Shown piece after piece: positions 3,662 to 48,660 of a DNA stretch of 64,000 nucleotides. Position numbers and translations under genes: made by a program. A model generated the notes under the pieces. It had not been told where the DNA came from. It did not search any database and was given only the letters and a program-made list of their open reading frames with translations. Numbering within the stretch: the first letter of the stretch is position 1; each line of letters starts with the position of its first letter. The stretch comes from Clostridia bacterium (GTDB lineage Bacteria; Bacillota; Clostridia; UBA1212): NCBI GenBank assembly GCA_017444825.1, contig JAFSVU010000004.1, positions 59,025 to 123,024 on the forward strand, given 5' to 3'.

Positions 3662-4330
3662 TCAGTCTTTGTTCAGATCTTCGATTATTTTAGTTACTAT
3701 AGCCTCAATCTGTTCTTCATTCATTACTTTTCCGGAATCATTGAGAGCCTTTGTTACAGCTTCGCTGATGGTGTCTTCGGAAATTGATGTAGTGATCTGT
3801 TTTGTGATCGCCTCGCTGATAATACCACCCAATTCTTCTTTTGAAATATCGTTTGACGGAAGCTTGGCCATTACCTGTTCAACTATTTTTTTCAGATCTT
3901 CATCCGTGAGCTTACTGTGGTCAGTAATGACCACATCGATTTCCTTGCCCGTCTGGTTTTCGAGAGCCTTGGTCACCAGAGCAACTATCTCCTCCTTGCT
4001 AAGCTGACCAATGTTCTCCGGAGCATTTATCAACACTATCCGGTTTTTTGTTTCTTTTTCAGCAAGCTCTTCTAAGACCTTATCAACAGCCCTATCCAAA
4101 TCCTCTTGAGTCATATATTTACCATTGTCATAGTTTGCTATTATTGCGTCAAGTTTATCATTAATATCTTCTTTCTGCTCGATTGCCCTGCCGGAAGCGC
4201 TGAAAACGCTACGCATAATCAGCCAAAAGATTATGAAAACCAATAGCACGACAATGATTACAAGAATAACTTCGACCCAGTTCCGGCGTTTTCCAGGCAT
4301 TTTGTCCGGTTCTTTTTGTGTATTTGGCAT
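3662..4330 (-). CDS. Single-pass membrane protein with acidic helical-repeat ectodomain (hypothetical)
   Basis: Start moved to the ATG at 4330, which is preceded by AAAGGAGGTG. An N-terminal TM segment (VEVILVIIVVLLVFIIFWLIM) is present. Repeats of the 'T..D..KA..E' type resemble the N-terminal part of the upstream pilin-like protein. Confidence 0.6.
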   Translation of the reverse strand: MPNTQKEPDKMPGKRRNWVEVILVIIVVLLVFIIFWLIMRSVFSASGRAIEQKEDINDKLDAIIANYDNGKYMTQEDLDRAVDKVLEELAEKETKNRIVLINAPENIGQLSKEEIVALVTKALENQTGKEIDVVITDHSKLTDEDLKKIVEQVMAKLPSNDISKEELGGIISEAITKQITTSISEDTISEAVTKALNDSGKVMNEEQIEAIVTKIIEDLNKD

Positions 4331-4365
4331 GTTTACACCTCCTTTTTTGTTCTGATTTTTCCGCT

Positions 4366-6270
4366 TTAGTCTGCGGTCATAGTTATTGTAAGCCCTGGAA
4401 CCTCGCATAAGAACGTCTCTTGCCAAGCATTTCCGGCATATGCGTTCCAAACTAAAGCAACGCCGGCTGTTGTAACTCCTTCAGCCGTGGTAGAATTGAG
4501 CATATTCCCTATATTATCAATAACGCCATAAAGACTCGAAACGCTAAGCGCCGTAGGATAAAACTCTGTCCAATCCTTCCAAACAGGAGAGCTGGAAGAG
4601 ATGTCCTCACCTGCGGTACTGTTTGAATTGTTCATTTTACCTCTGATCCCTTCGTACCAGCCAGCATAAGTGTTTTGAACAAACGCAATTCCTAAACCCT
4701 TTCTATAGTTAAAATCGATCATGCGTCGAACAACTTCGCTCTCAACATGTCTATAATCAGTAGTATTTCCGGTGCATTGCCCACACAGTTTAACTAGTAT
4801 AGCATCTGACCAGCCACCTAAAACGGTTTCGACATAGTATTCCAAGCTTGTTTCCGCGCCGGCAGAAAGCTCATTGATGTACTGATTTATAAAGTTTGTA
4901 TCGACGGATGCATAAGTCGTTAAACTATTATCTTTTAGCCATTTTCGGTAATCGTCAAATAATCCTCCCTGAGTTAAATATGGAATGTATTCTCCCGGTA
5001 AAGTGACATAATTGCCGTTTCCGTCAAGCGAATATATGGTTCCGTCACTTATTATTATCTGCGCCGCATTACGAATTGCATCGATTATTCCTGAACTGAA
5101 TACTGAAGAATCAATATGGAAGTTATGCCCGCTGTTATCTACTATTTTTATTGTATACCCATTGGACATGCCCGGCATCTCATATACGTCCATAAATCTA
5201 CTGTTGATATCAACAGGATCAAGTATGATCGTTGCATTTTGAGGAACATTGTCAGGAATCGTATACGTGACAGTACCCATATGCCATACATACGTACTAT
5301 ATCCGGTAATTCCATAATCTAAGCTATTTGCAATGCTGAACAACTGCATTGCTTTTGTGGTTCCAATGGTGTCCCCGTTGTTATACTTATGGTCATCCAC
5401 GGTGTTATACGTCAATACACCTGTAATGTGATATTCAACAGAACCGGCGGAAACTACTGTGACTACCGCTGTAGCACTCTTGGTACCGGATGTTGCAGTG
5501 ATCGTTGCAGAACCGGCTGCAACGCCTGTTACAAGCCCCGTGGCATCGACAGTCGCAACAGCTGTATCGGATGATGTCCAGGTAACGGTTCTGCCCGAAG
5601 GCTCCGTTGTAGCAGAAAGCTGAACAGTATCCCCAATTTCAATTTCGTCCTCTGTTGGCGTGACAGTAATTCCTTGAACAAATTGTTCAAGAATTTTATG
5701 AACGATGGCCGCTATATCATCTTCATCAGGTACATTTTCAAGAGCGTCATCTACTACTTCATCAACGGCAGTCTTTATCGATGTATCAAGACCAATCTCT
5801 TCAATCGCTTTCAGTATATCATCCTTGGTTATAGCTGTTTTTGGAAGTTTAGAAATTATATCTTCAATGTACGATTCGTCTACACCGGCTCTTTCAAGAA
5901 TAACTCTTACTTGAACATCCGTCAGATTCTTTTTAATAAGCTCGTTAAATATCTTTGTCAGTTGCTCTTCGCTCAGTCCCATATCGTCATAACCTTCGAG
6001 GAGTGCGATTATATTCCCCGTGTTAACTTCGCCTTGGGTCAATTTTTCCATGAGAGATTTTTCAAAATCCTCCCATGTCATATAGTTGTTATTGAGAACA
6101 CGCTCTGCCATATCATTAATCTGCTGGCTGGTGCGATCCTGAAGAAATACGGAATCGTTAGCTTTTTTTATAATTGCGGCAAACGTTGGAATGAGTACGG
6201 CCGCTATTATTGCAATAATCGCTATAACGATAACAAGTTCGACTACAGTAAATGCTTTTCTTTTATTCAT
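4366..6270 (-). CDS. Prepilin-type N-terminal cleavage/methylation-domain protein with Big_2 (bacterial Ig-like) domain and large unknown C-terminal domain
   Basis: The N-terminus MNKRKA|FTVVELVIVIAIIAIIA has Phe+1 and Glu+5, matching a type IV pilin signal. The segment VQLSATTEPSGRTVTWTSSDTAVATVDATGLVTGVAAGSATITATS matches the Big_2 pattern. Confidence 0.8.
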   Translation of the reverse strand: MNKRKAFTVVELVIVIAIIAIIAAVLIPTFAAIIKKANDSVFLQDRTSQQINDMAERVLNNNYMTWEDFEKSLMEKLTQGEVNTGNIIALLEGYDDMGLSEEQLTKIFNELIKKNLTDVQVRVILERAGVDESYIEDIISKLPKTAITKDDILKAIEEIGLDTSIKTAVDEVVDDALENVPDEDDIAAIVHKILEQFVQGITVTPTEDEIEIGDTVQLSATTEPSGRTVTWTSSDTAVATVDATGLVTGVAAGSATITATSGTKSATAVVTVVSAGSVEYHITGVLTYNTVDDHKYNNGDTIGTTKAMQLFSIANSLDYGITGYSTYVWHMGTVTYTIPDNVPQNATIILDPVDINSRFMDVYEMPGMSNGYTIKIVDNSGHNFHIDSSVFSSGIIDAIRNAAQIIISDGTIYSLDGNGNYVTLPGEYIPYLTQGGLFDDYRKWLKDNSLTTYASVDTNFINQYINELSAGAETSLEYYVETVLGGWSDAILVKLCGQCTGNTTDYRHVESEVVRRMIDFNYRKGLGIAFVQNTYAGWYEGIRGKMNNSNSTAGEDISSSSPVWKDWTEFYPTALSVSSLYGVIDNIGNMLNSTTAEGVTTAGVALVWNAYAGNAWQETFLCEVPGLTITMTAD

Positions 6271-6406
6271 AATATATTTCCCTTTATCTATAATGGTTCT
6301 TTACTCGTGCAAAGCCTTGTACAACAGACATAGATTTACACAAGAAAAGAATGAAACGCACCTCTTAAACAAGATGGTGCATAAAGTACAATAAAAGGGA
6401 TTTCAG

Positions 6407-6952
6407 TCAACAATTTAGCCTGCAGATCATAATTAGGATCCCTCCACGATTCATTGGCGGCAATATCGCGGTAAAAATCTTTTTTGAAACCCTAGTCTCT
6501 GCTTTTTTTATCAGATGACTCGCTGCACATATAAACTCTTTTGTCATCTCAAAAACGCCGTGCATAACAACAACAATGCCCAGCGTTACTGCCAATGTAG
6601 ATACAGATATAATCGTTTTAATGACCGGAGTATTTATTACATTGCTTTTTTCGTTTAAAAATCGAACAATATTTGCCGGATTGAATTCATACAGAAAATT
6701 AATACGTTCTTCTGAATTCAAAAAGCCTAGTTGTGCAACGTCTAAAACCAACAATGCATAGACCCATGAAATTATCACAGCCCAAAACAAAACAATAGAA
6801 ACCAATGCCACCCGCATCTTTCTCTTATAAAACATATTAGAAAGATAAAGCATGCTCAAAAAGAGCATCGCAAGAATCATGACCAGCATTAGGTATAATT
6901 TCCCTTCAAATAAAAAAATAATAATAATTACCTTTGTATACAATAAAACCAC
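6407..6952 (-). CDS. Hypothetical polytopic membrane protein
   Basis: The 181-aa ORF has 4-5 hydrophobic segments and lies in very AT-rich DNA. Its start codon is uncertain. Confidence 0.45.
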   Translation of the reverse strand: MVLLYTKVIIIIFLFEGKLYLMLVMILAMLFLSMLYLSNMFYKRKMRVALVSIVLFWAVIISWVYALLVLDVAQLGFLNSEERINFLYEFNPANIVRFLNEKSNVINTPVIKTIISVSTLAVTLGIVVVMHGVFEMTKEFICAASHLIKKAETRVSKKIFTAILPPMNRGGILIMICRLNC

Positions 6953-39321: not shown

Positions 39322-42300
39322 TCAACTGCCGGTGTAGATATAGATGATTTCTGCGTTGGCAAGGCATTCGTTTCCGGTTTCTACGTCAATACTCTGCCAC
39401 TGTTCTAACGATCCTTGGTAAAAGACTGACTGAAGCCCGATGCAATCCCAGAACGCTCCATGTCCGATTTCTGTAATTCCGGCATGCATTCCCACTCGTT
39501 TAAGCCCCGTGCAATATGAAAATGTTCTTGCGCTGATTACTTTTACTTTGCATGGTATGTCTATCTCTGTAAGCCCGGTGCAACCTGCAAATGCCCAGTC
39601 TCCGATTTCGGTAACACTGTCGGGTATTACTAAGCTTGTAAGTGCGGCGCAACCTGCAAATGCCCTATTCCCGATCTCGGTAACACTGTCGGGTATGGTT
39701 ACATTTTCAAGTTCTTTGCAACCGCGGAATGCACTGTCTCCGATTTTAGTCACACTGCCATCATCAGGTATAATACTATTTTTGCACCCTACAACCAGCT
39801 CTTTCGTATCCGCCTTTATAATACAATCATTTCGTTCATAATATCTCTCTGTTTTGGAATCAACAGATTGGACAGTTATTTTTTTGAGTTCCGTACAAAT
39901 CGAGAAGGCTCCGTATCCTATCTCAGACACACCGGCAGGTATGTCTATACTCGTAAGGCCTGTACATCCCGTGAATGCATTGGCTCCGATTTCCGTTCCG
40001 TCACCGGTTATCGCCAAAGTTATAAGCCCCGTGCAATTCTTGAACGCAAATTCCCAGATTTTTGTATCATCACTGTTTATCTCTAAACCGGTAAGTCCGG
40101 TACAGCCTTCAAACGCACTTTTCCCAATTTCTTTGATTTTCTCTGTTATTTGAATGTTGCTAAGCCCGGAACAACCGCTGAATGCGCTGTCACCGATCTT
40201 GGTCACACTGCCGTCATCAGGTATAATGCTATTTTTGCATCCGACTATCAACTCTTTCGTATCAGCCTTTATGATGCAATTATTTCGGCTATAGTATTTC
40301 CCAATTCCGGAGTTTACAGAATGAACCGTTAGTTTTTCGATTTCATTACAGCCAGCGAAAGCGCCGTATTCAATCTTCGTCACACTGTCAGGTATGTCCA
40401 AACTTGTAAGGCCGGTGCAACCGCTGAATGCACTTTGTCCGATTTCTGTTCCGCTGCCGGTTATCTCCACATTCGTAAGTTCATTGCAGTCGCTGAATGC
40501 AAAACCTCCGATTTTTGTTTTGTTGCCTGTTATCTCTATGCTCGTAAGGCCGGTGCAACCGCGGTATGCAGCATTAGTTATTTCTGTCCCGTTGCCGGTT
40601 ATTTTAACATCTGTGAGTGCTTTGTTATTACTGAAGGCTTCTTCTCCGATTCTTGTTCCGTTTCCGGTTATTTCTATGTGCTTAAGTCCTGTTGTGAATT
40701 CTGTATCAAAGCTCCAGCAGCCGAATGCTCTTCTTCCGATTTCGGTATTATTACCGTGTATTGTTATTTTTGTAAGGCTTCTGCAACCGCTTAATGCTGC
40801 TTCTCCAATTTTCGTAACCCTATCATGAATACCTATGCACGAGAGATTTGTGCAGCAAAAAAACGCATGTTCTCCGATTATTGTAACGGATCGGGGTATG
40901 TATATGCTCGTAAGACTTGTACGACCGCGGAAGGCAGATTCTTCAATTTGAGTGCCATTGCTTGTAATTCTATAAAGGCCTTTAAAAGTCGTGCACGAAG
41001 CTGCGTCCTTCATTTTTTCTACACAATCTTTAAAGCCAATCGCCTTTTTCCTGTCTTCGTATATTAAGGCCAGTTCAGAATGCATATTGTCGGAGAATAC
41101 AGCTTTCAGTTCTTTTAAAAGTTCTTTCCTCACATAGTTGTATTTCTTTAACCCCTTATGAAGATCAATTTTGTTCTCATTGCTCGTCTCTATATTGTCA
41201 AAAGAATCCTGAAGTATTTTATAAATTGCAGGAAAATAGAATAACTCGGTGTAAGGATTTGTCCCTTTCGCACATTTCCATGCAGGCTTGCCAAAACTTG
41301 AGTCCCATTTTTTCAATATTATGCTTCCGTCAAGATCCTCCACAGATACCGGAATTCGTTTGCGTTCTTTGAGGGAAAGCCCCGTAAGAATTCCTTCACA
41401 GCCTCGATCCATCATTCTTTCCAATATTTGGTTAATAGCCCGGTTTTTAATATGTGGCTTTTCAAACTGTGAAACCGCATCGCAAATAAGATCGTAATCA
41501 GGCTCATTTACCGACTGGAATCCCTCTACCAAAGACTCTGCGATATAGCTCTCCTTTGAATACTTGTCGCTGAGGAGAAGCAACGTCTTTTTAACGCTTT
41601 TCCAGTACTCAGAGTCAGATTTGGCTACTTCAAAGTCTTTGATCCTGACCGATTTATTTTTTATTGTTAGCCAAAGATATAGAGCATCTGAACTGGTTTC
41701 TCCATTTTTGGAATTGTCACCTTTGGCATTATTCTTGATCTCAGTCCACAAAAAATATGCAGCATAAGCCTCGGCAAAAAACTCGTGACTGAAACCGGTT
41801 TCATTACAAAGCTTGCTTTCCTCGAAAAACCGGTTAAACTTTTCCTTATACTTCGAATAATAATCCTCGTTAACTTCTTCGGCGCACCTTATAAGCATAT
41901 GCGAATCGATTTTCGGAAAAGGTTTATTGGCATCTTTCGCCCTGTAGATTTTATACGAAAGACATCCCAGGATCGATTTTATATCATCCTCGTTTATAAA
42001 CTCCCACCCGGTAGGGTTTTTATGCAATTCCCGATATATCACACTGTTTATGGCATACTCCACAGCGTCAAAACGAGTCTCCGGGAGGGAATCCTCCACG
42101 AGGGGATCGTAGGCGGTGAAGATCGTGAATAAAAAGAACGGGTTTCGCGATATGTCCTTGTAATCTTTGACCGTTTGCTCTTTTTCGTTTATTTTTTCGA
42201 AAAAAGTATCTTTTTTCTCATCCGATTCATGCCTGACATTGGCGAGCTTCAAAATATACTTGTCTCTCTTTTCATTGTCAAAATATTGGACCTTGTATCT

Positions 42301-43581
42301 TCTGACGAGAGTCATTGGCGTTTGGTCAATCATCATGTCGTTTACTGACGCCAATCGTTTCTGCCCCGGCCTTGAAGTAAACAATATATGCACTCCGGCG
42401 GTTTTGTGGTTCGAAATGAGGACGCTGTTGATCTTATCGACCAGAATATCCATGGTGCTTGCCGGGACCTCATCCATCGCGTCGAAAATGAATAAAGGCC
42501 TGCAGTTTCTCAGAACAGCTTCAAAACCCGGCTGGCTGAGGTCAATCCCCTTAAAGAGCGCTCTATAGAAGTCTTCGTCATTGGCGAGACTTTGGATAAA
42601 ATCCTTGCACTCGTAATACATCGGGAAAAACTCATTCTTTGAGAAACCGAGTTTTTTCGTTCTTTCGCCAAGGTCTATGCACAGTTTTTTGACCGCCAGC
42701 GACTTTCCCTGACCTGCATCGCCAACCAGCACCGCATACTTGTCTCTCATCAGCTGCTCCCTAAGATTTTCATCCTCGAACAGCTCTTTAGGAAGTTCTT
42801 CATGCTTTTCCCGGGCGGTCTTTATTTCTTCATCCGTATGAAGTCTTTCCAGCGTCACCGGCACATAGGTTCCCTCAATCGTAAGACCCGAATCGTCAAA
42901 CCCTTCTCCCGGAATGAATATTGCGTTTCGCTTTTTCTTCTGCGCATCAAGTACGTCGGCATAGTAACCGACCTCTGATTTTTCAAACAGCCTGTCAAAA
43001 ATAACGTCGGCGAAACTGCTCAAAGCTTCATCGTCAATATCCAGTGTCTTTAATTTCACGCCCTGGGACCTTCTGAGATAAAGCTTTACCTTTTCAAGAT
43101 CCTCTTTGGCAACCTCTTCGGCCTTTTTCGAAAGTGCCTCGTCAAAATGGTCTTCGAGATCAGCCCCGCTCACAAGTTTAAGGAGCCGCTCCGCTTCATC
43201 CTTCGGATAATCTAACTTCTGAGTTGTTGAGTTGGTTTTAAAATCCAGAAATACAGGTACGACTCTTGCTCCGTTTTCGAGTGCCGTCAAATATTCAAAC
43301 AGGCAAAAGTCTTTGTCGAGATCGCGGTTGCTTTCGGGGCCGAAGCTGATATAACTATCGGTGACCACAGGCATGAAAACATACGCACCACCGGCACTTT
43401 TTCTGAGATTTTCCACAAAATCACCGCTGCGCAATTCATTCTTATCGTAAAAAACATGAAGTCCTGTCTCAGCTTTTATTCTATTTATAAAGGAATTGAA
43501 AACCTCCTCCGTAGCGGCTTCCTTGTCGCCCCAGCGGTAGCTCAGAAATATATGGTATTGTCTGTCGTCAGTTGAGCTCAT
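39322..43581 (-). CDS. TIR-NACHT(STAND NTPase)-LRR (BspA/LRR_5-type) protein, 1419 aa; candidate NLR-like defence protein
   Basis: TIR elements are YHIFLSYRWGD, HVFYD and DFCLFEY. Walker A is VLVGDAGQGKS (nt 42700-42723), Walker B is LFIFDAMDEV (nt 42466-42495), and the NACHT-like ILFTSRP follows. Residues ~875-1419 are tandem repeats of the ..VTKIGDSAFSGCTGLTSI.IP.. type. Confidence 0.9.
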   Translation of the reverse strand: MSSTDDRQYHIFLSYRWGDKEAATEEVFNSFINRIKAETGLHVFYDKNELRSGDFVENLRKSAGGAYVFMPVVTDSYISFGPESNRDLDKDFCLFEYLTALENGARVVPVFLDFKTNSTTQKLDYPKDEAERLLKLVSGADLEDHFDEALSKKAEEVAKEDLEKVKLYLRRSQGVKLKTLDIDDEALSSFADVIFDRLFEKSEVGYYADVLDAQKKKRNAIFIPGEGFDDSGLTIEGTYVPVTLERLHTDEEIKTAREKHEELPKELFEDENLREQLMRDKYAVLVGDAGQGKSLAVKKLCIDLGERTKKLGFSKNEFFPMYYECKDFIQSLANDEDFYRALFKGIDLSQPGFEAVLRNCRPLFIFDAMDEVPASTMDILVDKINSVLISNHKTAGVHILFTSRPGQKRLASVNDMMIDQTPMTLVRRYKVQYFDNEKRDKYILKLANVRHESDEKKDTFFEKINEKEQTVKDYKDISRNPFFLFTIFTAYDPLVEDSLPETRFDAVEYAINSVIYRELHKNPTGWEFINEDDIKSILGCLSYKIYRAKDANKPFPKIDSHMLIRCAEEVNEDYYSKYKEKFNRFFEESKLCNETGFSHEFFAEAYAAYFLWTEIKNNAKGDNSKNGETSSDALYLWLTIKNKSVRIKDFEVAKSDSEYWKSVKKTLLLLSDKYSKESYIAESLVEGFQSVNEPDYDLICDAVSQFEKPHIKNRAINQILERMMDRGCEGILTGLSLKERKRIPVSVEDLDGSIILKKWDSSFGKPAWKCAKGTNPYTELFYFPAIYKILQDSFDNIETSNENKIDLHKGLKKYNYVRKELLKELKAVFSDNMHSELALIYEDRKKAIGFKDCVEKMKDAASCTTFKGLYRITSNGTQIEESAFRGRTSLTSIYIPRSVTIIGEHAFFCCTNLSCIGIHDRVTKIGEAALSGCRSLTKITIHGNNTEIGRRAFGCWSFDTEFTTGLKHIEITGNGTRIGEEAFSNNKALTDVKITGNGTEITNAAYRGCTGLTSIEITGNKTKIGGFAFSDCNELTNVEITGSGTEIGQSAFSGCTGLTSLDIPDSVTKIEYGAFAGCNEIEKLTVHSVNSGIGKYYSRNNCIIKADTKELIVGCKNSIIPDDGSVTKIGDSAFSGCSGLSNIQITEKIKEIGKSAFEGCTGLTGLEINSDDTKIWEFAFKNCTGLITLAITGDGTEIGANAFTGCTGLTSIDIPAGVSEIGYGAFSICTELKKITVQSVDSKTERYYERNDCIIKADTKELVVGCKNSIIPDDGSVTKIGDSAFRGCKELENVTIPDSVTEIGNRAFAGCAALTSLVIPDSVTEIGDWAFAGCTGLTEIDIPCKVKVISARTFSYCTGLKRVGMHAGITEIGHGAFWDCIGLQSVFYQGSLEQWQSIDVETGNECLANAEIIYIYTGS

Positions 43582-43715: not shown

Positions 43716-43807
43716 AGTTTACCCGCGTTAAAAAAACGTGTCAATATCAAAAATGAAGTTTCTCGCCTTGGTGTCGACCATAGCCGACAGTAAAACGCAA
43801 AAACTTC
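43716..43807 (-). promoter_or_regulatory. Promoter plus conserved upstream module R1 (in front of the TIR-NACHT-LRR gene)
   Basis: On the minus strand, TTGACA (43739-43744) is followed by 17 nt and TAAACT (43716-43721). The 70 nt from the -35 upward (43738-43807) match 46897-46966 at 61/70 positions by manual alignment. GTGTCAAT-like boxes lie at 43738 and 43771, 33 bp apart. Confidence 0.55.
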
Positions 43808-43847
43808 ATTCAGGTTTCAAAATACACATCCGCAAGAAAGGTTTCTA

Positions 43848-44045
43848 TTATTTCTTCCGCCTCCCGAAAATCGGTGAAACGATATCGGCTCTTCCCGAAC
43901 CAACGTCAACCGCAACGTCATCCGCGACCTTTACCCTCGTTTTTCCGTTTTTACCAAGAATAATGCCACCCGAGAATTCATATTCGACTTCGCCGGTCCT
44001 CCAATTCAGGACAGGCTTAAAAGGATCGTTTTTATCGTTTTTCAT
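43848..44045 (-). CDS. Hypothetical 65-aa protein
   Basis: The ORF has an AAGGAA RBS-like sequence before its ATG. No motif was recognised. Confidence 0.35.
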   Translation of the reverse strand: MKNDKNDPFKPVLNWRTGEVEYEFSGGIILGKNGKTRVKVADDVAVDVGSGRADIVSPIFGRRKK

Positions 44046-44096: not shown

Positions 44097-44444
44097 TTAC
44101 TGCCGCGGATCATTTCCAGGATCAGCTTCAAAACTTATCCACATGGCGGGCCTCACACCATATTCCCAGTCACAGTACATCCCGCTTGGACGAACTCCGC
44201 CATCATCAGCAACAGTTGCCGCAGGAAAACAGCGGCCATTCGGAACTGCTCCGGAAGACCGTAACCACCACCGACAGTGAGAGTTTCCGTAGGGCTTATA
44301 TTCGACTCCCTCATCTGTCTCAACACCTTTCATTTTAGCATTGGCCGTAGGCAGACACAATCTGGCTTCATTGCTTTCAAAAAGAGTTTTGGCCTCTTTG
44401 ACGCTGAGAAGAAACACTTTATCGATCGTGTCGCTGTTCGACAC
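44097..44444 (-). pseudogene. 5'-truncated paralogue of the 46181-46840 gene (C-terminal WWLRS/DUF6273-like domain only)
   Basis: 44137-44436 aligns without gaps to 46197-46496. Homology stops abruptly at 44436/46496. Only a GTG is available as a start, there is no RBS, and about 105 N-terminal codons are missing. Confidence 0.65.
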
Positions 44445-44546
44445 CTAAACAGATTTTTAATGTTTTTTTGAAAAACCAGCGGTTTTATCCGAACATCTCT
44501 TGATTTGCATCCCACTTCAAGTGCTCATAAGGCCTAGGAATTACGC

Positions 44547-45203
44547 TTATCTTATCTTCCACACGAATGTCAAGAGTGCATAGTCTGAACCGCAATCGAT
44601 GTTATCTTTGTCAAATACTATGGTATTATAGATATATTCATCACACGTCAAGTCGGTCTTATCGCTAAAGTACTTTTCATTTTTGAATGAGTCAAGTACC
44701 TCTTGCTTCTTTTTATTCTCAGTCCACACATCAGCAAGGATAACACCATATATGCTGAAATTCTCTAACCAATCAAGCTTGGCAAATCTCTTGTCCTTTT
44801 CGATGTCCTTTGCAAACTGTTTTATTCTTATGATGTCTTTGGTAATAGCGTTACTTTTTCCGGTTGTGTTCGTAAAGCGTTTCGACTCTATGACAAACAG
44901 GTTTTTTTCTGTTTTATCAATTATGATACAATCGAGGTGGTTGTTCTTTTTCTCGTCAATGAAATCAGCCGCACCTGGCTGTTCATTCTTATCGTCTTGA
45001 TCCGCCTCTTTCTTTGAAAACTGTAGCTCGTACCAGCTTAAAACATCTCTATTGGGAAAGGCATCTTTATATGCTTCCGCAAAATTTACAGTCAGATTAC
45101 GCTCTTGAAGACCGGTTGAACCGATTGAAGGATAGAAAGTCGTCAGAATGCGATTATATCGATTTCTGTAGTTTTCAAAGACTGCGTTTGTCAATATTTC
45201 CAT
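44547..45203 (-). CDS. Predicted PD-(D/E)xK-fold nuclease (hypothetical, 218 aa)
   Basis: Start set at ATG 45203, after GAGGGAAAA; the longer ORF would need a TTG start. The motif LDCIIID-x12-FVIESKR matches a D...ExK pattern, preceded by conserved acidic residues. Confidence 0.6.
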   Translation of the reverse strand: MEILTNAVFENYRNRYNRILTTFYPSIGSTGLQERNLTVNFAEAYKDAFPNRDVLSWYELQFSKKEADQDDKNEQPGAADFIDEKKNNHLDCIIIDKTEKNLFVIESKRFTNTTGKSNAITKDIIRIKQFAKDIEKDKRFAKLDWLENFSIYGVILADVWTENKKKQEVLDSFKNEKYFSDKTDLTCDEYIYNTIVFDKDNIDCGSDYALLTFVWKIR

Positions 45204-45238
45204 TTTTCCCTCGTGTTTACTCAAGTTTTTAGTGTAGT

Positions 45239-46102
45239 TCAATTCATGTTATAACCATTTTCTTTAGTTTGGAACACTTCTTTCCAATAACTTTCACGAG
45301 CTATAATAATATGAGAATCCGTGTTTTTGTTAAATGTCTCTATTATAGTAAACTCAAAATTTTCTTGGAAATACGATTCTCCAACGCGATTGTATAATTC
45401 AATAAGAGCTTTATTCCTTCCGTGCATTGAATCTATGTAGTCGGACCACCTTTGAAGTATACCTTCTTCTCCATACGCCGAACCAATGTAAAACTTACTT
45501 TCTTTTTTATCTGTTAAACAATAGACACCTTTAACACCTTGAAGAGCAGATCTATAATCTGCGTACTTATGCCCTTCAAGAATGTGTTTTAAGGTGGAGT
45601 AAGAAAGATGAACACTATCAAAACCTTGGAATTTGATAGGCTCATAGACGTTTGGAAGAATCTCGGAAACTTCTGCCTCGTCTATTACTGTTGCCAAGTC
45701 AAAAATGTAACGCGCAAATTTATTGCCTTTATGATAGCTGATTATCAATCTGCCTATCAGCCCCTGATAAGCTTCTAACTCAACATGGCCACATGCCCCA
45801 CTATTATTTCTATCCGGAATAGAAGTTATTTCGCCCGCCGAAACCAACAACCACTTATCATCATGTTCTTGAAGCCTTACAAAGCCAAAGCACCATTGGC
45901 CAACTCTTGTGAAGTTTCTATTCCTTCCGTGCACTCCTTGGTGTGAGTGATATGTAAAATCAACATTCCTGTTTTGCTCGTCACTTTCATACCAAATCTC
46001 GAAATGGGTTTTCCCTCCCCATTGCATGTTCAAACCTATTTTTGAATTTGCGATTTGTTCGCTGTTCAAGTGCAAGATATCGTTGAGCATTATTTTTGTC
46101 AT
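45239..46102 (-). CDS. GIY-YIG nuclease-domain protein with uncharacterised ~190-aa N-terminal domain
   Basis: The C-terminal segment GVYCLTDKKESKFYIGSAYGEEGILQRWSDY...ARESYWKEVF...GYN fits GIY-x10-YIG, Arg, Glu and Asn. RBS AGGAG lies 7 nt before the ATG. Confidence 0.8.
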   Translation of the reverse strand: MTKIMLNDILHLNSEQIANSKIGLNMQWGGKTHFEIWYESDEQNRNVDFTYHSHQGVHGRNRNFTRVGQWCFGFVRLQEHDDKWLLVSAGEITSIPDRNNSGACGHVELEAYQGLIGRLIISYHKGNKFARYIFDLATVIDEAEVSEILPNVYEPIKFQGFDSVHLSYSTLKHILEGHKYADYRSALQGVKGVYCLTDKKESKFYIGSAYGEEGILQRWSDYIDSMHGRNKALIELYNRVGESYFQENFEFTIIETFNKNTDSHIIIARESYWKEVFQTKENGYNMN

Positions 46103-46180
46103 AATATTCTCCTTGTTCTATTTTAAGGCAAAAGCACATTCATCGCTTGTTGCTTTCTCGTTTAGTAAGCGATAAAAAGC

Positions 46181-46840
46181 TTACGATTCAAGAGATATCC
46201 ACATGGCAGGTCGCACAGCAAATTCCCAATCACAGTACATTCCGCTTGGGCGAACTCCACCATCATCAGCAACAGTTGCGGCAGGAAAACAACGACCGTT
46301 CGGAACGACTCCGGAAGACCGTAACCACCACAGACAATGAGGGTTTTCGTAGGGCTTATATTCGTCGCCCTCATCTGTCTCAACACCTTTCATTTTAGCA
46401 TAAGCCGTAGGCAGACACAATCTGGCTTCATTGCTTTCAAAAAGAGTTTTGGCCTCTTTGACGCTGAGAAGAAACACTTTATCGATCGTGTCGCTGCCTG
46501 GCTCTATCGTTGTACCAAAATACGAGTCATAAATCGGTTTTTCCTCTACTTTTAAGGCAGTACTGAGAATTCTCTTCTGCTCAGCATCATTAAAGGCAAC
46601 CCGAAAAAAGTCGTTGTTAAGCCACTCGCGGAGTGAACATCTCTCCCAAGGTGCATTTTCGATTGCTTCATCATTGTACTGTTTGCAATCAAGAGCATAT
46701 TCGCTTAAGACAAGGGCCTTGCTATTCTCAACCCTTAGAACACGCCAAACAAGTTCCCGTATATCGCCTTCAGCCGTCGTTGGATATCGGCCGAAAGTGA
46801 TTGTGCGTTTTCCGTTTTCGTCAGTTTTAAAGTAGTCCAT
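46181..46840 (-). CDS. Hypothetical protein with C-terminal Cys/Trp-rich 'WWLRS' domain (DUF6273-like)
   Basis: The 219-aa protein carries ...CLWWLRSSGVVPNGRCFPAATVADDGGVRPSGMYCDWEFAVRPAMWI. RBS GAGGG. The promoter module R2 lies directly upstream. Confidence 0.7.
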   Translation of the reverse strand: MDYFKTDENGKRTITFGRYPTTAEGDIRELVWRVLRVENSKALVLSEYALDCKQYNDEAIENAPWERCSLREWLNNDFFRVAFNDAEQKRILSTALKVEEKPIYDSYFGTTIEPGSDTIDKVFLLSVKEAKTLFESNEARLCLPTAYAKMKGVETDEGDEYKPYENPHCLWWLRSSGVVPNGRCFPAATVADDGGVRPSGMYCDWEFAVRPAMWISLES

Positions 46841-46874: not shown

Positions 46875-46966
46875 AGTTTATGAAAGCACAGAATTGGTGT
46901 CAATATCAAAAATGAAGTTTTCTGCGTTGGTGTCAATCATGACCGACAATAAAACGCAAAAACTTC
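46875..46966 (-). promoter_or_regulatory. Promoter plus conserved upstream module R2 (in front of 46181-46840 and the nuclease pair)
   Basis: On the minus strand, TTGACA (46898-46903) is followed by 17 nt and TAAACT (46875-46880). GTGTCAAT boxes lie at 46897 and 46930. It is the homologue of R1, exactly 3159 nt away. Confidence 0.55.
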
Positions 46967-47026
46967 GTTAAATTTCACCGATCTAATTACAACTATCTTT
47001 TATCAGATATCGCAGACCCGCATTGA

Positions 47027-47683
47027 TCATTTATACACATCTTCCGGAATGCCCGCTCTGATGTATCTCTCAAAGGGACTGTCAGTTTCCCAGTTCCAAC
47101 CTTCTGGCATGCTATCTTTTGAGATCCGGTTTACAAGGCTGTCTTCTTCCGTTGTCAAAAACACCTGTGGTATATTGGCGCTCATGTACTCAATGTACCT
47201 TAAGGCATTATCAGCATTTTTCTTTTCGATATATTCAAGCAGCTTTAATTTCGAATAATTGACGGGGACAGGGTGCTCATAAACACCGCTTTTTATCTTC
47301 CTTTTTCTCTCTTTTTGCTTTTGTGAAAGTCTATGAATTCTTCTGAATGTTTGTCCTTGCTGCTTTGTGAGCCAGGATAGAAGTTCCTCGCTGAAAGCCT
47401 CATCGCCGTACCGGATCAAAAGGAGAACGTACTCCTTGGCGATTTCGACAACAGACAGACTCATGTTACCCGGCCGAACCTTTGGCTCACCGTAGAACGG
47501 CATATCAATCTTTTTTGATAGATCACAGCGCAATCTGTAAACTAACTCTTCAGAAGCGCCTACGTCTCTCAGAAAAGTGTTCACCCTTTCCTTAAAGCTT
47601 TGAACTTCAGGGCTGTTTCTTCTTGCTTCAAGTTTTTTCGTATAAACGGTATTTGGCACACTGTCACCATCCAGGTCGGTCAT
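47027..47683 (-). CDS. Hypothetical 218-aa protein translationally coupled to the WYL regulator
   Basis: The ATG at 47683 overlaps the WYL gene stop (ATGA at 47680-47683). The centre is basic (KQKERKRKIK). The C-terminal segment YEHPVPVN...LTTEEDSLVN is of unknown meaning. Confidence 0.65.
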   Translation of the reverse strand: MTDLDGDSVPNTVYTKKLEARRNSPEVQSFKERVNTFLRDVGASEELVYRLRCDLSKKIDMPFYGEPKVRPGNMSLSVVEIAKEYVLLLIRYGDEAFSEELLSWLTKQQGQTFRRIHRLSQKQKERKRKIKSGVYEHPVPVNYSKLKLLEYIEKKNADNALRYIEYMSANIPQVFLTTEEDSLVNRISKDSMPEGWNWETDSPFERYIRAGIPEDVYK

Positions 47684-48660
47684 TCCACAGCTTCCCACGC
47701 CTGCCGCACAAACTCCCTGTACTCCTCCACGACCTCGTCCGGCCCGGTCACCTTCACCTTGCCGCCAAAACCCACGATCCAGCAGAAGAGCACGTTGTTC
47801 ACAGCCACCTCGACCGTAGCCTCAAACGTGCCGTCGCCCCGCAGGAACGTGTCCACCTTCTCGCCAAACCGGTCCACAATTGCATCCATCACCGAATTGT
47901 CGCAGATAAGCCTCACCCGCTTGCGCTCGGAATTAAACATGTGCGGCATTGTGTTGATGTGTCGCTCCAGGTCAAACCCCTTCTCCAGCGGGATCGCGTC
48001 ATCCTGCAAAATCTCCGGCGGCGCCACCATCCTGTCAACGCGAAAACTCGTCAAGCCCTCATACTTCTCATACCGGCCGATAACGTAGTAAAAATCGCCG
48101 TTCCACACCAGTCTGTAGGGACTGAAGCAATACCTGTACCCGTCGTGGCGCAGCTTCCTCTGCTTCTTCTCGTTGTACTCAAAATACTGGAACGAGATCT
48201 GCTTCTTTTGGTTTATCGCATCGTTGACCGCCTCAATGATCCCCAGCACTTTCTTGTTGGTCCCCTTGATCCGCCTCTCGACCGAAACGTTTCGAACCAG
48301 CTTTTCTGACCCGTGCTTTCCCGCAAGCGCAGTGATCTTCGCGATCAGCTTCTTGCTCTGAGTCGCCGGTATAAATTTGCACGACGCCAATGAATCGATC
48401 ATCAGCCTCATCTCCGCATCGTCAAAGTACCTTTTCCCGAAAAAGTAGCGGTTTTGCGTCGACTTGGTCATCTGAATGTCGAAGCCAAGCTCCTTCAGCA
48501 TCTCGATATCAGCGCCAATGGTCGTCCTGTGCGTAGTCATACCATACTCGTCCTCGAGTATGCGCATCAGCTGCGCCGTCGTCAGAAAATGCTCCGCATC
48601 GGTTCGCTCGAAAAGTATTCTGGCAAGCAGCCAGGGTCGAAGTTTTGCGTCAATGTCCAT
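47680..48660 (-). CDS. HTH-WYL-WCX transcriptional regulator (BrxR/CapW/PafBC-like)
   Basis: The N-terminal wHTH reads FLTTAQLMRILEDEYGMTTHRTTIGADIEMLKELGF. The WYL core is YRLVWNGDFYYVIGRYEKYEGLTSFRVDRM. A C-terminal extension follows. RBS AGGAGAGG is strong. Confidence 0.88.
   Translation of the reverse strand: MDIDAKLRPWLLARILFERTDAEHFLTTAQLMRILEDEYGMTTHRTTIGADIEMLKELGFDIQMTKSTQNRYFFGKRYFDDAEMRLMIDSLASCKFIPATQSKKLIAKITALAGKHGSEKLVRNVSVERRIKGTNKKVLGIIEAVNDAINQKKQISFQYFEYNEKKQRKLRHDGYRYCFSPYRLVWNGDFYYVIGRYEKYEGLTSFRVDRMVAPPEILQDDAIPLEKGFDLERHINTMPHMFNSERKRVRLICDNSVMDAIVDRFGEKVDTFLRGDGTFEATVEVAVNNVLFCWIVGFGGKVKVTGPDEVVEEYREFVRQAWEAVE

Follow-up and report, generated by a model that had tools for sequence, protein, structure and literature searches.

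Introduction

Uzume is a one-gene defence system, listed as SG175 ('GIY-YIG nuclease') in supplementary tables published by Millman et al. in 2022, where the gene of Bacillus sp. FJAT-27231 is marked as verified. Reviews up to 2026 still give its mechanism as unknown. Here we analyse a homologue of the Uzume gene, uzuA, together with the gene immediately downstream of it, which we refer to as the companion gene. Both are encoded on the minus strand of a 64,000-nucleotide stretch of contig JAFSVU010000004.1 (positions 59,025 to 123,024; assembly GCA_017444825.1) from a Clostridia bacterium. This whole stretch is called the window, and all coordinates given for the locus are positions within it (Table 1). 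A sequence-only reading of the window had interpreted the two genes as a nuclease cassette, suggesting a two-nuclease defence module or, alternatively, a selfish homing-type element, and had matched them to no named system. We find that profile matches place the first gene in Uzume, that the second represents an unannotated family with a predicted PD-(D/E)xK fold, and that the two families do not occur together at the loci surveyed.

Another described system in which a single chain carries a GIY-YIG nuclease is CMoRE/PD-T4-3 (PDB 9u75), a type IV restriction enzyme that is modification-dependent, with a C-terminal sensor of modified cytosine (PMC12923530). It shares with the UzuA homologue the combination of a GIY-YIG domain and a (in UzuA, presumed) sensing domain in one chain, as well as the lack of a methyltransferase, but its nuclease is N-terminal and its sensor C-terminal, which is the reverse of the order in UzuA. 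The UzuA homologue has no match to the PADLOC model for PD-T4-3 at E≤0.1, and its Foldseek alignment with 9u75 (E of 0.42 over about 100 alignment columns) is not significant. CMoRE/PD-T4-3 is nevertheless the nearest mechanistic precedent for a single-chain GIY-YIG defence enzyme without a methyltransferase, and it provides a working model of the way in which UzuA could discriminate phage DNA, although it is not a relative by profile. Type II restriction–modification (R-M) systems of the Eco29kI type also employ a GIY-YIG endonuclease; they differ from the present locus in that uzuA has no adjacent cognate methyltransferase.

Results

The first gene belongs to the Uzume family

The two open reading frames (ORFs) described by the sequence-only reading are present, 35 nucleotides (nt) apart, each preceded by a good ribosome-binding site (Table 1); the GAGGG that had been taken as that of the companion gene is among them. 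The 287-residue product of the first gene matches the PADLOC model of UzuA, PDLC03973, with an E-value of 1.9e-46 (residues 49-287 on profile positions 44-278 of 278), and a second UzuA model, PDLC03974, with an E-value of 1.5e-43. The verified UzuA of Bacillus sp. FJAT-27231 matches PDLC03973 over its full length (3-280 on 3-278). As judged from these profiles, the first gene, for which no named system had been recognised, is uzuA, encoding the sole protein of Uzume, and it comes from a subfamily of gut Firmicutes and Mollicutes-like metagenome-assembled genomes. It has in common with other Uzume genes the profile family, a length of ~280 residues, an N-terminal domain that by profile is the family's own, followed by a C-terminal GIY-YIG domain with complete catalytic residues, the lack of an obligatory partner, and a location in defence islands or prophages. 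It differs from the verified Bacillus protein in sequence, with 33% identity that extends in pairwise comparison only over the C-terminal 130-140 residues.

The C-terminal GIY-YIG module noted in the sequence-only reading is well supported. Pfam PF01541 matches residues 191-285 with an E-value of 2.6e-6, above the gathering score, and Tyr194, Tyr205, Arg218, Glu270 and Asn285 are invariant in an alignment of 50 homologues. In the AlphaFold 2 (AF2) model, which has a predicted local distance difference test (pLDDT) score of 93, the C-terminal domain resembles the catalytic domain of I-TevI (PDB 1mk0; Foldseek E of 3e-5, template modelling (TM) score of 0.76). The N-terminal domain has no fold match in the PDB by Foldseek and no Pfam model. 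It had been described as novel, but from residue 49 onwards it falls within the PADLOC UzuA model; the first 48 residues lie outside the profile match. The domain is therefore the family's own by profile, uncharacterised yet not new to this locus, and we presume that it serves in sensing or DNA binding. A metal-binding role, which its richness in His, Cys and Trp might suggest, finds no support, as these residues are not invariant among the 50 homologues.

Full-length homologues of UzuA form at least 131 clusters, and an architecture of 275-290 residues is kept throughout. Scanning GTDB genomes with the single UzuA protein gave no match; an alignment query did find relatives, and of the first 600 pattern matches listed, 588 encoded one. 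UzuA is also present on 65 IMG/VR contigs. One homologue, on a metagenome scaffold (L164, 5739-6606), appears to be split into products of 176 and 126 residues; we do not regard it as a pseudogene, as the split coincides with a run of 10 Ns at a scaffold gap and is an assembly artefact. (Pro)phage loci of two independent groups carry UzuA homologues of 37-46% identity directly downstream of the gene for the terminase large subunit. In the first group (L013, L017, L169 and L206, with the UzuA match at 6001-6861 or 4001-4861) the homologue is situated between the terminase gene and a gene with a weak match to the SPP1 portal protein; the second group comprises L189-L192 and L208. Free-standing homing endonucleases or morons typically occupy such a position.

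The companion gene encodes a predicted PD-(D/E)xK nuclease

The companion protein has no match in Pfam, NCBIfam or PADLOC (PADLOC 2.0), and only noise at E>0.1 in PHROGs. It represents an unannotated family of stand-alone proteins, for which Pfam, NCBIfam and PADLOC have no model. A word-indexed search returned 41 clusters of relatives and an exhaustive profile search 506 representatives, the resulting family count of about 500 referring to clusters at 50% identity; nearly all members are stand-alone proteins of ~200 residues. The mechanically predicted ORF extends to a TTG codon at 45242 (231 residues), but the family alignment favours the ATG start given in Table 1.

Six residues of the companion, Glu34, Glu59, Asp91, Glu106, Lys108 and Trp160, are invariant in 98 diverse members, and the family has specific invariant residues of its own (ERNLTVN and ILADVW). 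The sequence-only reading had pointed to a D-x12-ExK signature in LDCIIID...FVIESKR. The motif itself is borne out by its invariance, but the spacing is D91-x14-E106-x-K108. The AF2 model of the companion (pLDDT 85) has an alpha-beta-beta-beta-alpha-beta core, made up of a helix (33-48), three strands (54-61, 89-96 with Asp91, and 101-109 with Glu106 and Lys108), a second helix (113-136) and a final strand (150-160); the motif residues occupy the canonical positions of a PD-(D/E)xK core.

A lax Pfam scan of the 98 relatives yielded matches to NERD (10), HamA (8), DUF234 (4), HSDR_N_2 (4) and Mrr_cat_2 (1), all of them sub-threshold (best E of 4.7e-4), with no other family being matched more than twice. 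All five are families that we take to belong to the PD-(D/E)xK clan. Of the small PD-(D/E)xK nucleases known from defence and R-M systems, NERD, the HamA protein of Hachiman, the Mrr catalytic domain and the HsdR N-terminal domain share with the companion the core topology and the E/D/ExK signature; they differ in that no companion member reaches any of their gathering scores. Unlike HamA-HamB and HsdR, the companion lacks a partner with helicase or ATPase function. A Foldseek search against models of viral proteins (BFVD) gave a best E-value of 2.2e-4, with TM scores of about 0.3; where the 25 top matches had a named annotation, it was most often PD-(D/E)XK nuclease, RecE-type exonuclease, Cas4 or restriction enzyme. 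Nothing below an E-value of 0.06 was found in the PDB, the weak matches, mostly of the PD-(D/E)xK fold, being to R2 RLE, McrC, cap-snatching endonucleases, MunI and AddB; sequence-profile searches of the PDB with companion alignments produced only noise.

Taken together, the invariant motif, the topology of the model and the recurrent weak matches to related profiles and folds indicate that the companion very probably adopts the PD-(D/E)xK fold, as had been predicted from the sequence. Because the E...E...D-x14-ExK site is invariant, the companion is most likely a Mg-dependent nuclease. The ratio of nonsynonymous to synonymous substitution rates (dN/dS) is 0.18 in comparison with a relative of 85% identity, indicating purifying selection.

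Companion genes are surrounded by matches to HTH_3 and WYL regulators, type IIG R-M enzymes, MADS, AriA and IetA, and also by genes for integrases, RepA_N, ParB, DUF6017 and the coupling protein of type IV secretion systems, as well as by some housekeeping genes. There is no constant partner among these: HTH_3 and WYL regulators are the commonest neighbours, and WYL proteins occur in just 6 of 44 locus groups. A phage origin of the family was considered and rejected, with no match in IMG/VR or GenBank phages.

These contexts bear on the question of whether the companion is a defence protein at all. It could instead serve the housekeeping of mobile elements, as a nuclease of recombination or repair or as an anti-restriction factor, or it could be an inactive DNA-binding derivative; its adjacency to uzuA would then be incidental. 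The frequent presence of integrase, RepA_N, ParB, DUF6017 and the secretion coupling protein fits this explanation, as do the members located beside plain housekeeping genes and the absence of the family from PADLOC 2.0, and a single fusion to NADAR of the DarT1-antitoxin type (see below) points to the processing of DNA adducts rather than to killing. A full catalytic set that is invariant speaks against an inactive derivative, and neighbours that include R-M enzymes, MADS, AriA, IetA and WYL regulators speak against a housekeeping role; the family is also missing from phage records and IMG/VR. We consider a role outside defence to be fairly unlikely.

Three loci of the companion family deserve description. 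In the commonest lineage (L097-L113, L135 and L158; for example, L098 239-10357), represented by 17 mostly human-gut contigs, the companion gene is part of an integrative element. It is flanked on one side by a tyrosine integrase, an AAA_25 replication protein and an XRE regulator, and on the other by an AAA_21/SMC-like ATPase and a type IIG restriction-methylase. P0216, a single predicted gene model of 439 residues, combines the companion domain (240-435) with a full-length NADAR domain of the kind seen in DarT1 antitoxins (PF22397, E of 3.7e-81), which hints at a link between the companion family and ADP-ribosylated DNA. The only relative found in the plasmid database is a hypothetical protein of 27% identity on a Vibrio parahaemolyticus plasmid (L233; NZ_CP010886.1, 1045-1668), located among short genes on the same strand (GNAT, DUF3265, MazG-related) in an arrangement resembling integron cassettes.

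The two families do not occur together

We surveyed 147 UzuA loci, 80 from GTDB genomes, two from metagenomes and 65 from IMG/VR. No companion gene was found within 4-6 kb of uzuA at any of the 147, even when a broader hidden Markov model was used at E≤1. UzuA has no constant neighbour of any kind at these loci, the biggest neighbour cluster accounting for 9 of 136. In the opposite direction, 78 companion loci in 44 distinct groups were collected, of which 77 in 43 groups are informative, a contig designated L090 being cut off upstream of the companion; none of the 77 contains UzuA.

The nearest relatives tell the same story. The closest UzuA homologue (77% identical at the amino acid level) has nucleotide homology to the window that begins 22 nt ahead of the uzuA start and extends no further than 16 nt short of its stop, and its neighbours are unrelated to those in the window. 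For a companion of 63% identity (L091), homology is confined to the companion gene, and the ORF upstream of it, of 148 residues, is unrelated. The pair of uzuA and companion was seen only in contigs that are identical or nearly identical to the window and in one copy of 89% identity, L090. A conserved two-gene system is refuted because the families do not co-occur; the sequence-only reading had itself proposed co-occurrence as the comparison by which to judge its two-nuclease module. What we observe is two genes that adjoin each other locally and have moved, or been maintained, as one block. We consider it likely that the locus consists of two adjacent nuclease modules, each of a single gene and independent of the other, within a defence island of low guanine-plus-cytosine (GC) content.

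Several points weigh against this interpretation. L090 (89% identity at the nucleotide level) retains the end of uzuA (its last 14 codons), the spacer of 35 nt, the companion gene and 109 nt downstream of it, and the two genes in the window share a GC content of 0.373. The pair therefore moves or persists together over a short distance, which a functional link would explain too. Many companion contigs are short, which makes the count of 0 of 77 the weaker one and that of 0 of 147 the stronger. As regards the first gene, BLASTP and hhalign alignments to the verified UzuA, at 33% identity, cover just the C-terminal 130-142 residues, and the equivalence of the N-terminal domains is predicted from the family profile. 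Both nuclease and anti-phage activity are predictions for this UzuA subfamily, and likewise for the companion family.

The obvious alternative is a lineage-specific two-nuclease system, in which the block would be the functional unit and the companion would work with UzuA, for example as an additional effector, as a factor of modulation or immunity, or as a reserve against phage inhibitors. Such a system would account for a gene order, a spacer and a 109-nt tail that are the same in the window and L090 while the downstream flanks are different, for the equal GC content of the two genes, which is well under that of the island, for the lack of a terminator-like site between them, and for the purifying selection on the companion. 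However, the partnership is found at none of the UzuA loci and none of the informative companion loci, UzuA has been verified as a single-gene system, the nearest relatives of each gene stand alone, and unrelated defence genes commonly adjoin one another in defence islands. A two-nuclease system thus appears quite unlikely to us, and two independent modules remain our preferred explanation.

The gene pair forms a 1.75-kb block

The two genes and a 109-nt 3' tail form a block of 1.75 kb, which is delimited by its GC content, the edge of the homology to L090 and the junctions of a direct repeat, D1. That the cassette is AT-rich had been noted before and is confirmed by its GC content of 0.372 (0.373 for each gene), whereas the island has 0.43 and its flanks have 0.52-0.54; the low-GC stretch holding both genes corresponds to about 39-53 kb of the window. 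Homology to L090 ends at about 44438, where L090 continues with a LexA-like gene and the window with a truncated DUF6273 gene.

Both edges of the block coincide with D1 junctions, the downstream edge being the break point in L090. The D1 copies are 300 nt long, 91% identical and spaced 2060 nt from start to start. One constitutes the 3' part of an intact gene upstream of uzuA, which matches DUF6273 (PF19789) with an E-value of 4e-26, and the other is contained in the DUF6273 remnant. They differ mainly at synonymous sites (dN/dS of 0.23, dS of 0.29), and so diverged as functional genes before the truncation. This suggests that D1 arose by recombination between diverged DUF6273 genes and is not a simple target-site duplication. 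The block was either inserted or took the place of the 5' portion of a second DUF6273 gene; it has persisted as a unit in two lineages. The two genes have thus been co-mobile at short evolutionary range, which is no evidence that they function together. An exact-protein look-up for an empty site, with DUF6273 followed directly by the 65-residue ORF described next, yielded no contigs other than ones identical to the window.

Downstream of the DUF6273 remnant, the minus strand contains an ORF of 65 residues (43848-44045) with a 51%-identical homologue in L091 (1681-1884). UzuA and DUF6273 are both absent from L091, where this homologue is located ~500 nt downstream of the companion homologue. 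The arrangement suggests that the companion and the 65-residue ORF were already neighbours before uzuA came. DUF6273 was also considered as a general target or partner of the two genes, and rejected: apart from the window, no UzuA locus has it nearby, and just one companion locus does.

The repeats and the I-TevI-like nuclease domain raise the alternative of a selfish homing-type cassette. The GIY-YIG protein would cut, for example, DUF6273 genes or neighbouring DNA, repair would copy the block into the cut site, and the 300-nt repeats would be the footprint of this process. The GIY-YIG domain is indeed structurally closest to I-TevI, sharing the catalytic fold of this type of homing endonuclease (Foldseek E of 3e-5, 26-28% identity), and there are sub-threshold matches to homing endonucleases in TIGR01453 (34.5 bits), PADLOC (HEase) and PHROGs. 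Direct repeats of a DUF6273 3' end bound the block, and the prophage UzuA homologues just downstream of terminase, between terminase and portal in one group, occupy a classic site of free-standing homing endonucleases. Yet UzuA is not intron-encoded, its domain order is the reverse of the I-TevI type, with the nuclease C-terminal, and it lacks the linker and DNA-binding module of I-TevI; the TIGR01453 match is below the cut-off of 56.05 and involves the nuclease domain only. Homing co-converts flanks and does not produce a 300-nt duplication with 91% identity, and the divergence of the D1 copies under purifying selection fits paralogues or recombination of diverged DUF6273 genes. Moreover, other UzuA loci have no DUF6273 gene nearby, and one member of the family protects against phage. 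The homing alternative, which the sequence-only reading had left standing, is weak, and we regard it as highly improbable.

A second direct repeat, D2, is found ahead of the DUF6273-uzuA-companion genes and again ahead of a gene for a TIR-NACHT-LRR protein. The two copies of 73 nt are 86% identical and carry TTGGTGTCRAY motifs, CCGACARTAAAACGCAAAAAC and a promoter-like TTGACA-17-TAAACT site. The sequence-only reading had the cassette driven from a promoter designated R2. A promoter-like site does exist, as a match to the consensus, and is situated ahead of the DUF6273 gene; from there through to uzuA and the companion gene no terminator-like site was found. The repetition of D2 suggests a shared operator/promoter, possibly one used by the nearby WYL regulator. 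A similar 20-mer, CCGACACTAAAATGCAAAAAG, is present just beyond the block boundary in L090 (~850-870).

Table 1. Positions of the genes, domains, repeats and other features of the uzuA-companion locus in the window.
Feature	Position	Strand	Remarks
uzuA homologue	45239-46102	minus	287 aa; ATG start with AAGGAG ahead
UzuA N-terminal domain (~residues 1-150)	45653-46102	minus	beta-rich; conserved in homologue alignment
UzuA C-terminal GIY-YIG nuclease domain (residues 191-287)	45239-45532	minus	PF01541 and Foldseek
Companion gene	44547-45203	minus	218 aa; ATG start with GAGGG ahead
Companion motif codons	44880-44933	minus	D91 44931-44933, E106 44886-44888, K108 44880-44882
1.75-kb block	44438-46186	minus	both genes and 109-nt 3' tail; from GC, L090 edge and D1 junctions
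Direct repeat D1, upstream copy	46187-46486	minus	3' part of intact DUF6273 gene 46181-46840
Direct repeat D1, downstream copy	44127-44426	minus	within truncated DUF6273 remnant 44097-44444
D2 repeat (73 nt), upstream copy	46897-46969	minus	ahead of DUF6273-uzuA-companion
D2 repeat, second copy	43738-43810		ahead of TIR-NACHT-LRR gene
Promoter-like TTGACA-17-TAAACT	46903-46875	minus	consensus match only

The locus is part of a defence island

The surroundings of the two genes are those of a typical defence island, in agreement with the sequence-only reading. The neighbours include a TIR-NACHT-LRR protein of 1419 residues, a WYL-WCX regulator and a Schlafen/AlbA_2-HATPase protein, and further a YgjP-like hydrolase, an HTH-M78 peptidase and a methyltransferase fragment. 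The last of these, an N6_Mtase fragment of 121 residues ~6 kb away, is the methyltransferase nearest to the block; none is present in the block or beside it, as had been remarked earlier.

The TIR-NACHT protein (39322-43581, minus strand), with LRR_5 repeats of the BspA type, resembles the NLR-like defence proteins of bacteria, but its PADLOC matches are only weak. Immediately upstream of D2, an ORF of 218 residues (47027-47683, minus strand) has a 4-nt overlap with the stop of the WYL-WCX gene (47680-48660) and no match in any library. It may be the effector of the WYL-WCX regulator itself.

Discussion

Our preferred explanation for the locus is that UzuA and the companion each act alone. The N-terminal domain of UzuA would recognise a trigger or target and its GIY-YIG domain would cut DNA. 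Because there is no methyltransferase nearby, the discrimination between self and non-self would have to come from the N-terminal domain, which might respond, for example, to a modification of phage DNA, a structure or a protein; CMoRE/PD-T4-3 operates along these lines with another sensor. The companion, for its part, would act as a Mg-dependent nuclease. Members of its family are cargo of integrative and conjugative elements and of variable islands, where HTH or WYL regulators and known defence genes are often their neighbours. On account of these contexts, we regard the companion as a candidate single-gene nuclease of defence or of element maintenance. Together with the upstream DUF6273 gene, the two genes are probably transcribed from the promoter-like site in D2, and in this lineage they have travelled as an AT-rich block of 1.75 kb in which neither would require the other. 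A bolder proposal, which we make tentatively and consider somewhat unlikely, is that the companion family could constitute a new one-gene system against phages or plasmids, carried by integrative elements, which here may have been welded to Uzume as a mobile block of two nucleases.

The analysis removes a supposed new two-nuclease system as a false lead. In its place, the locus can now be annotated as one Uzume gene, belonging to a subfamily of gut Firmicutes, and one unannotated PD-(D/E)xK-like gene. Any UzuA that is easily expressed would be useful, as Uzume is a system without a known mechanism and its N-terminal domain has no structural relative. The companion family is compact and well defined, with invariant catalytic residues and members in defence and mobile-element contexts, and would be a cheap candidate for a single-gene defence system.

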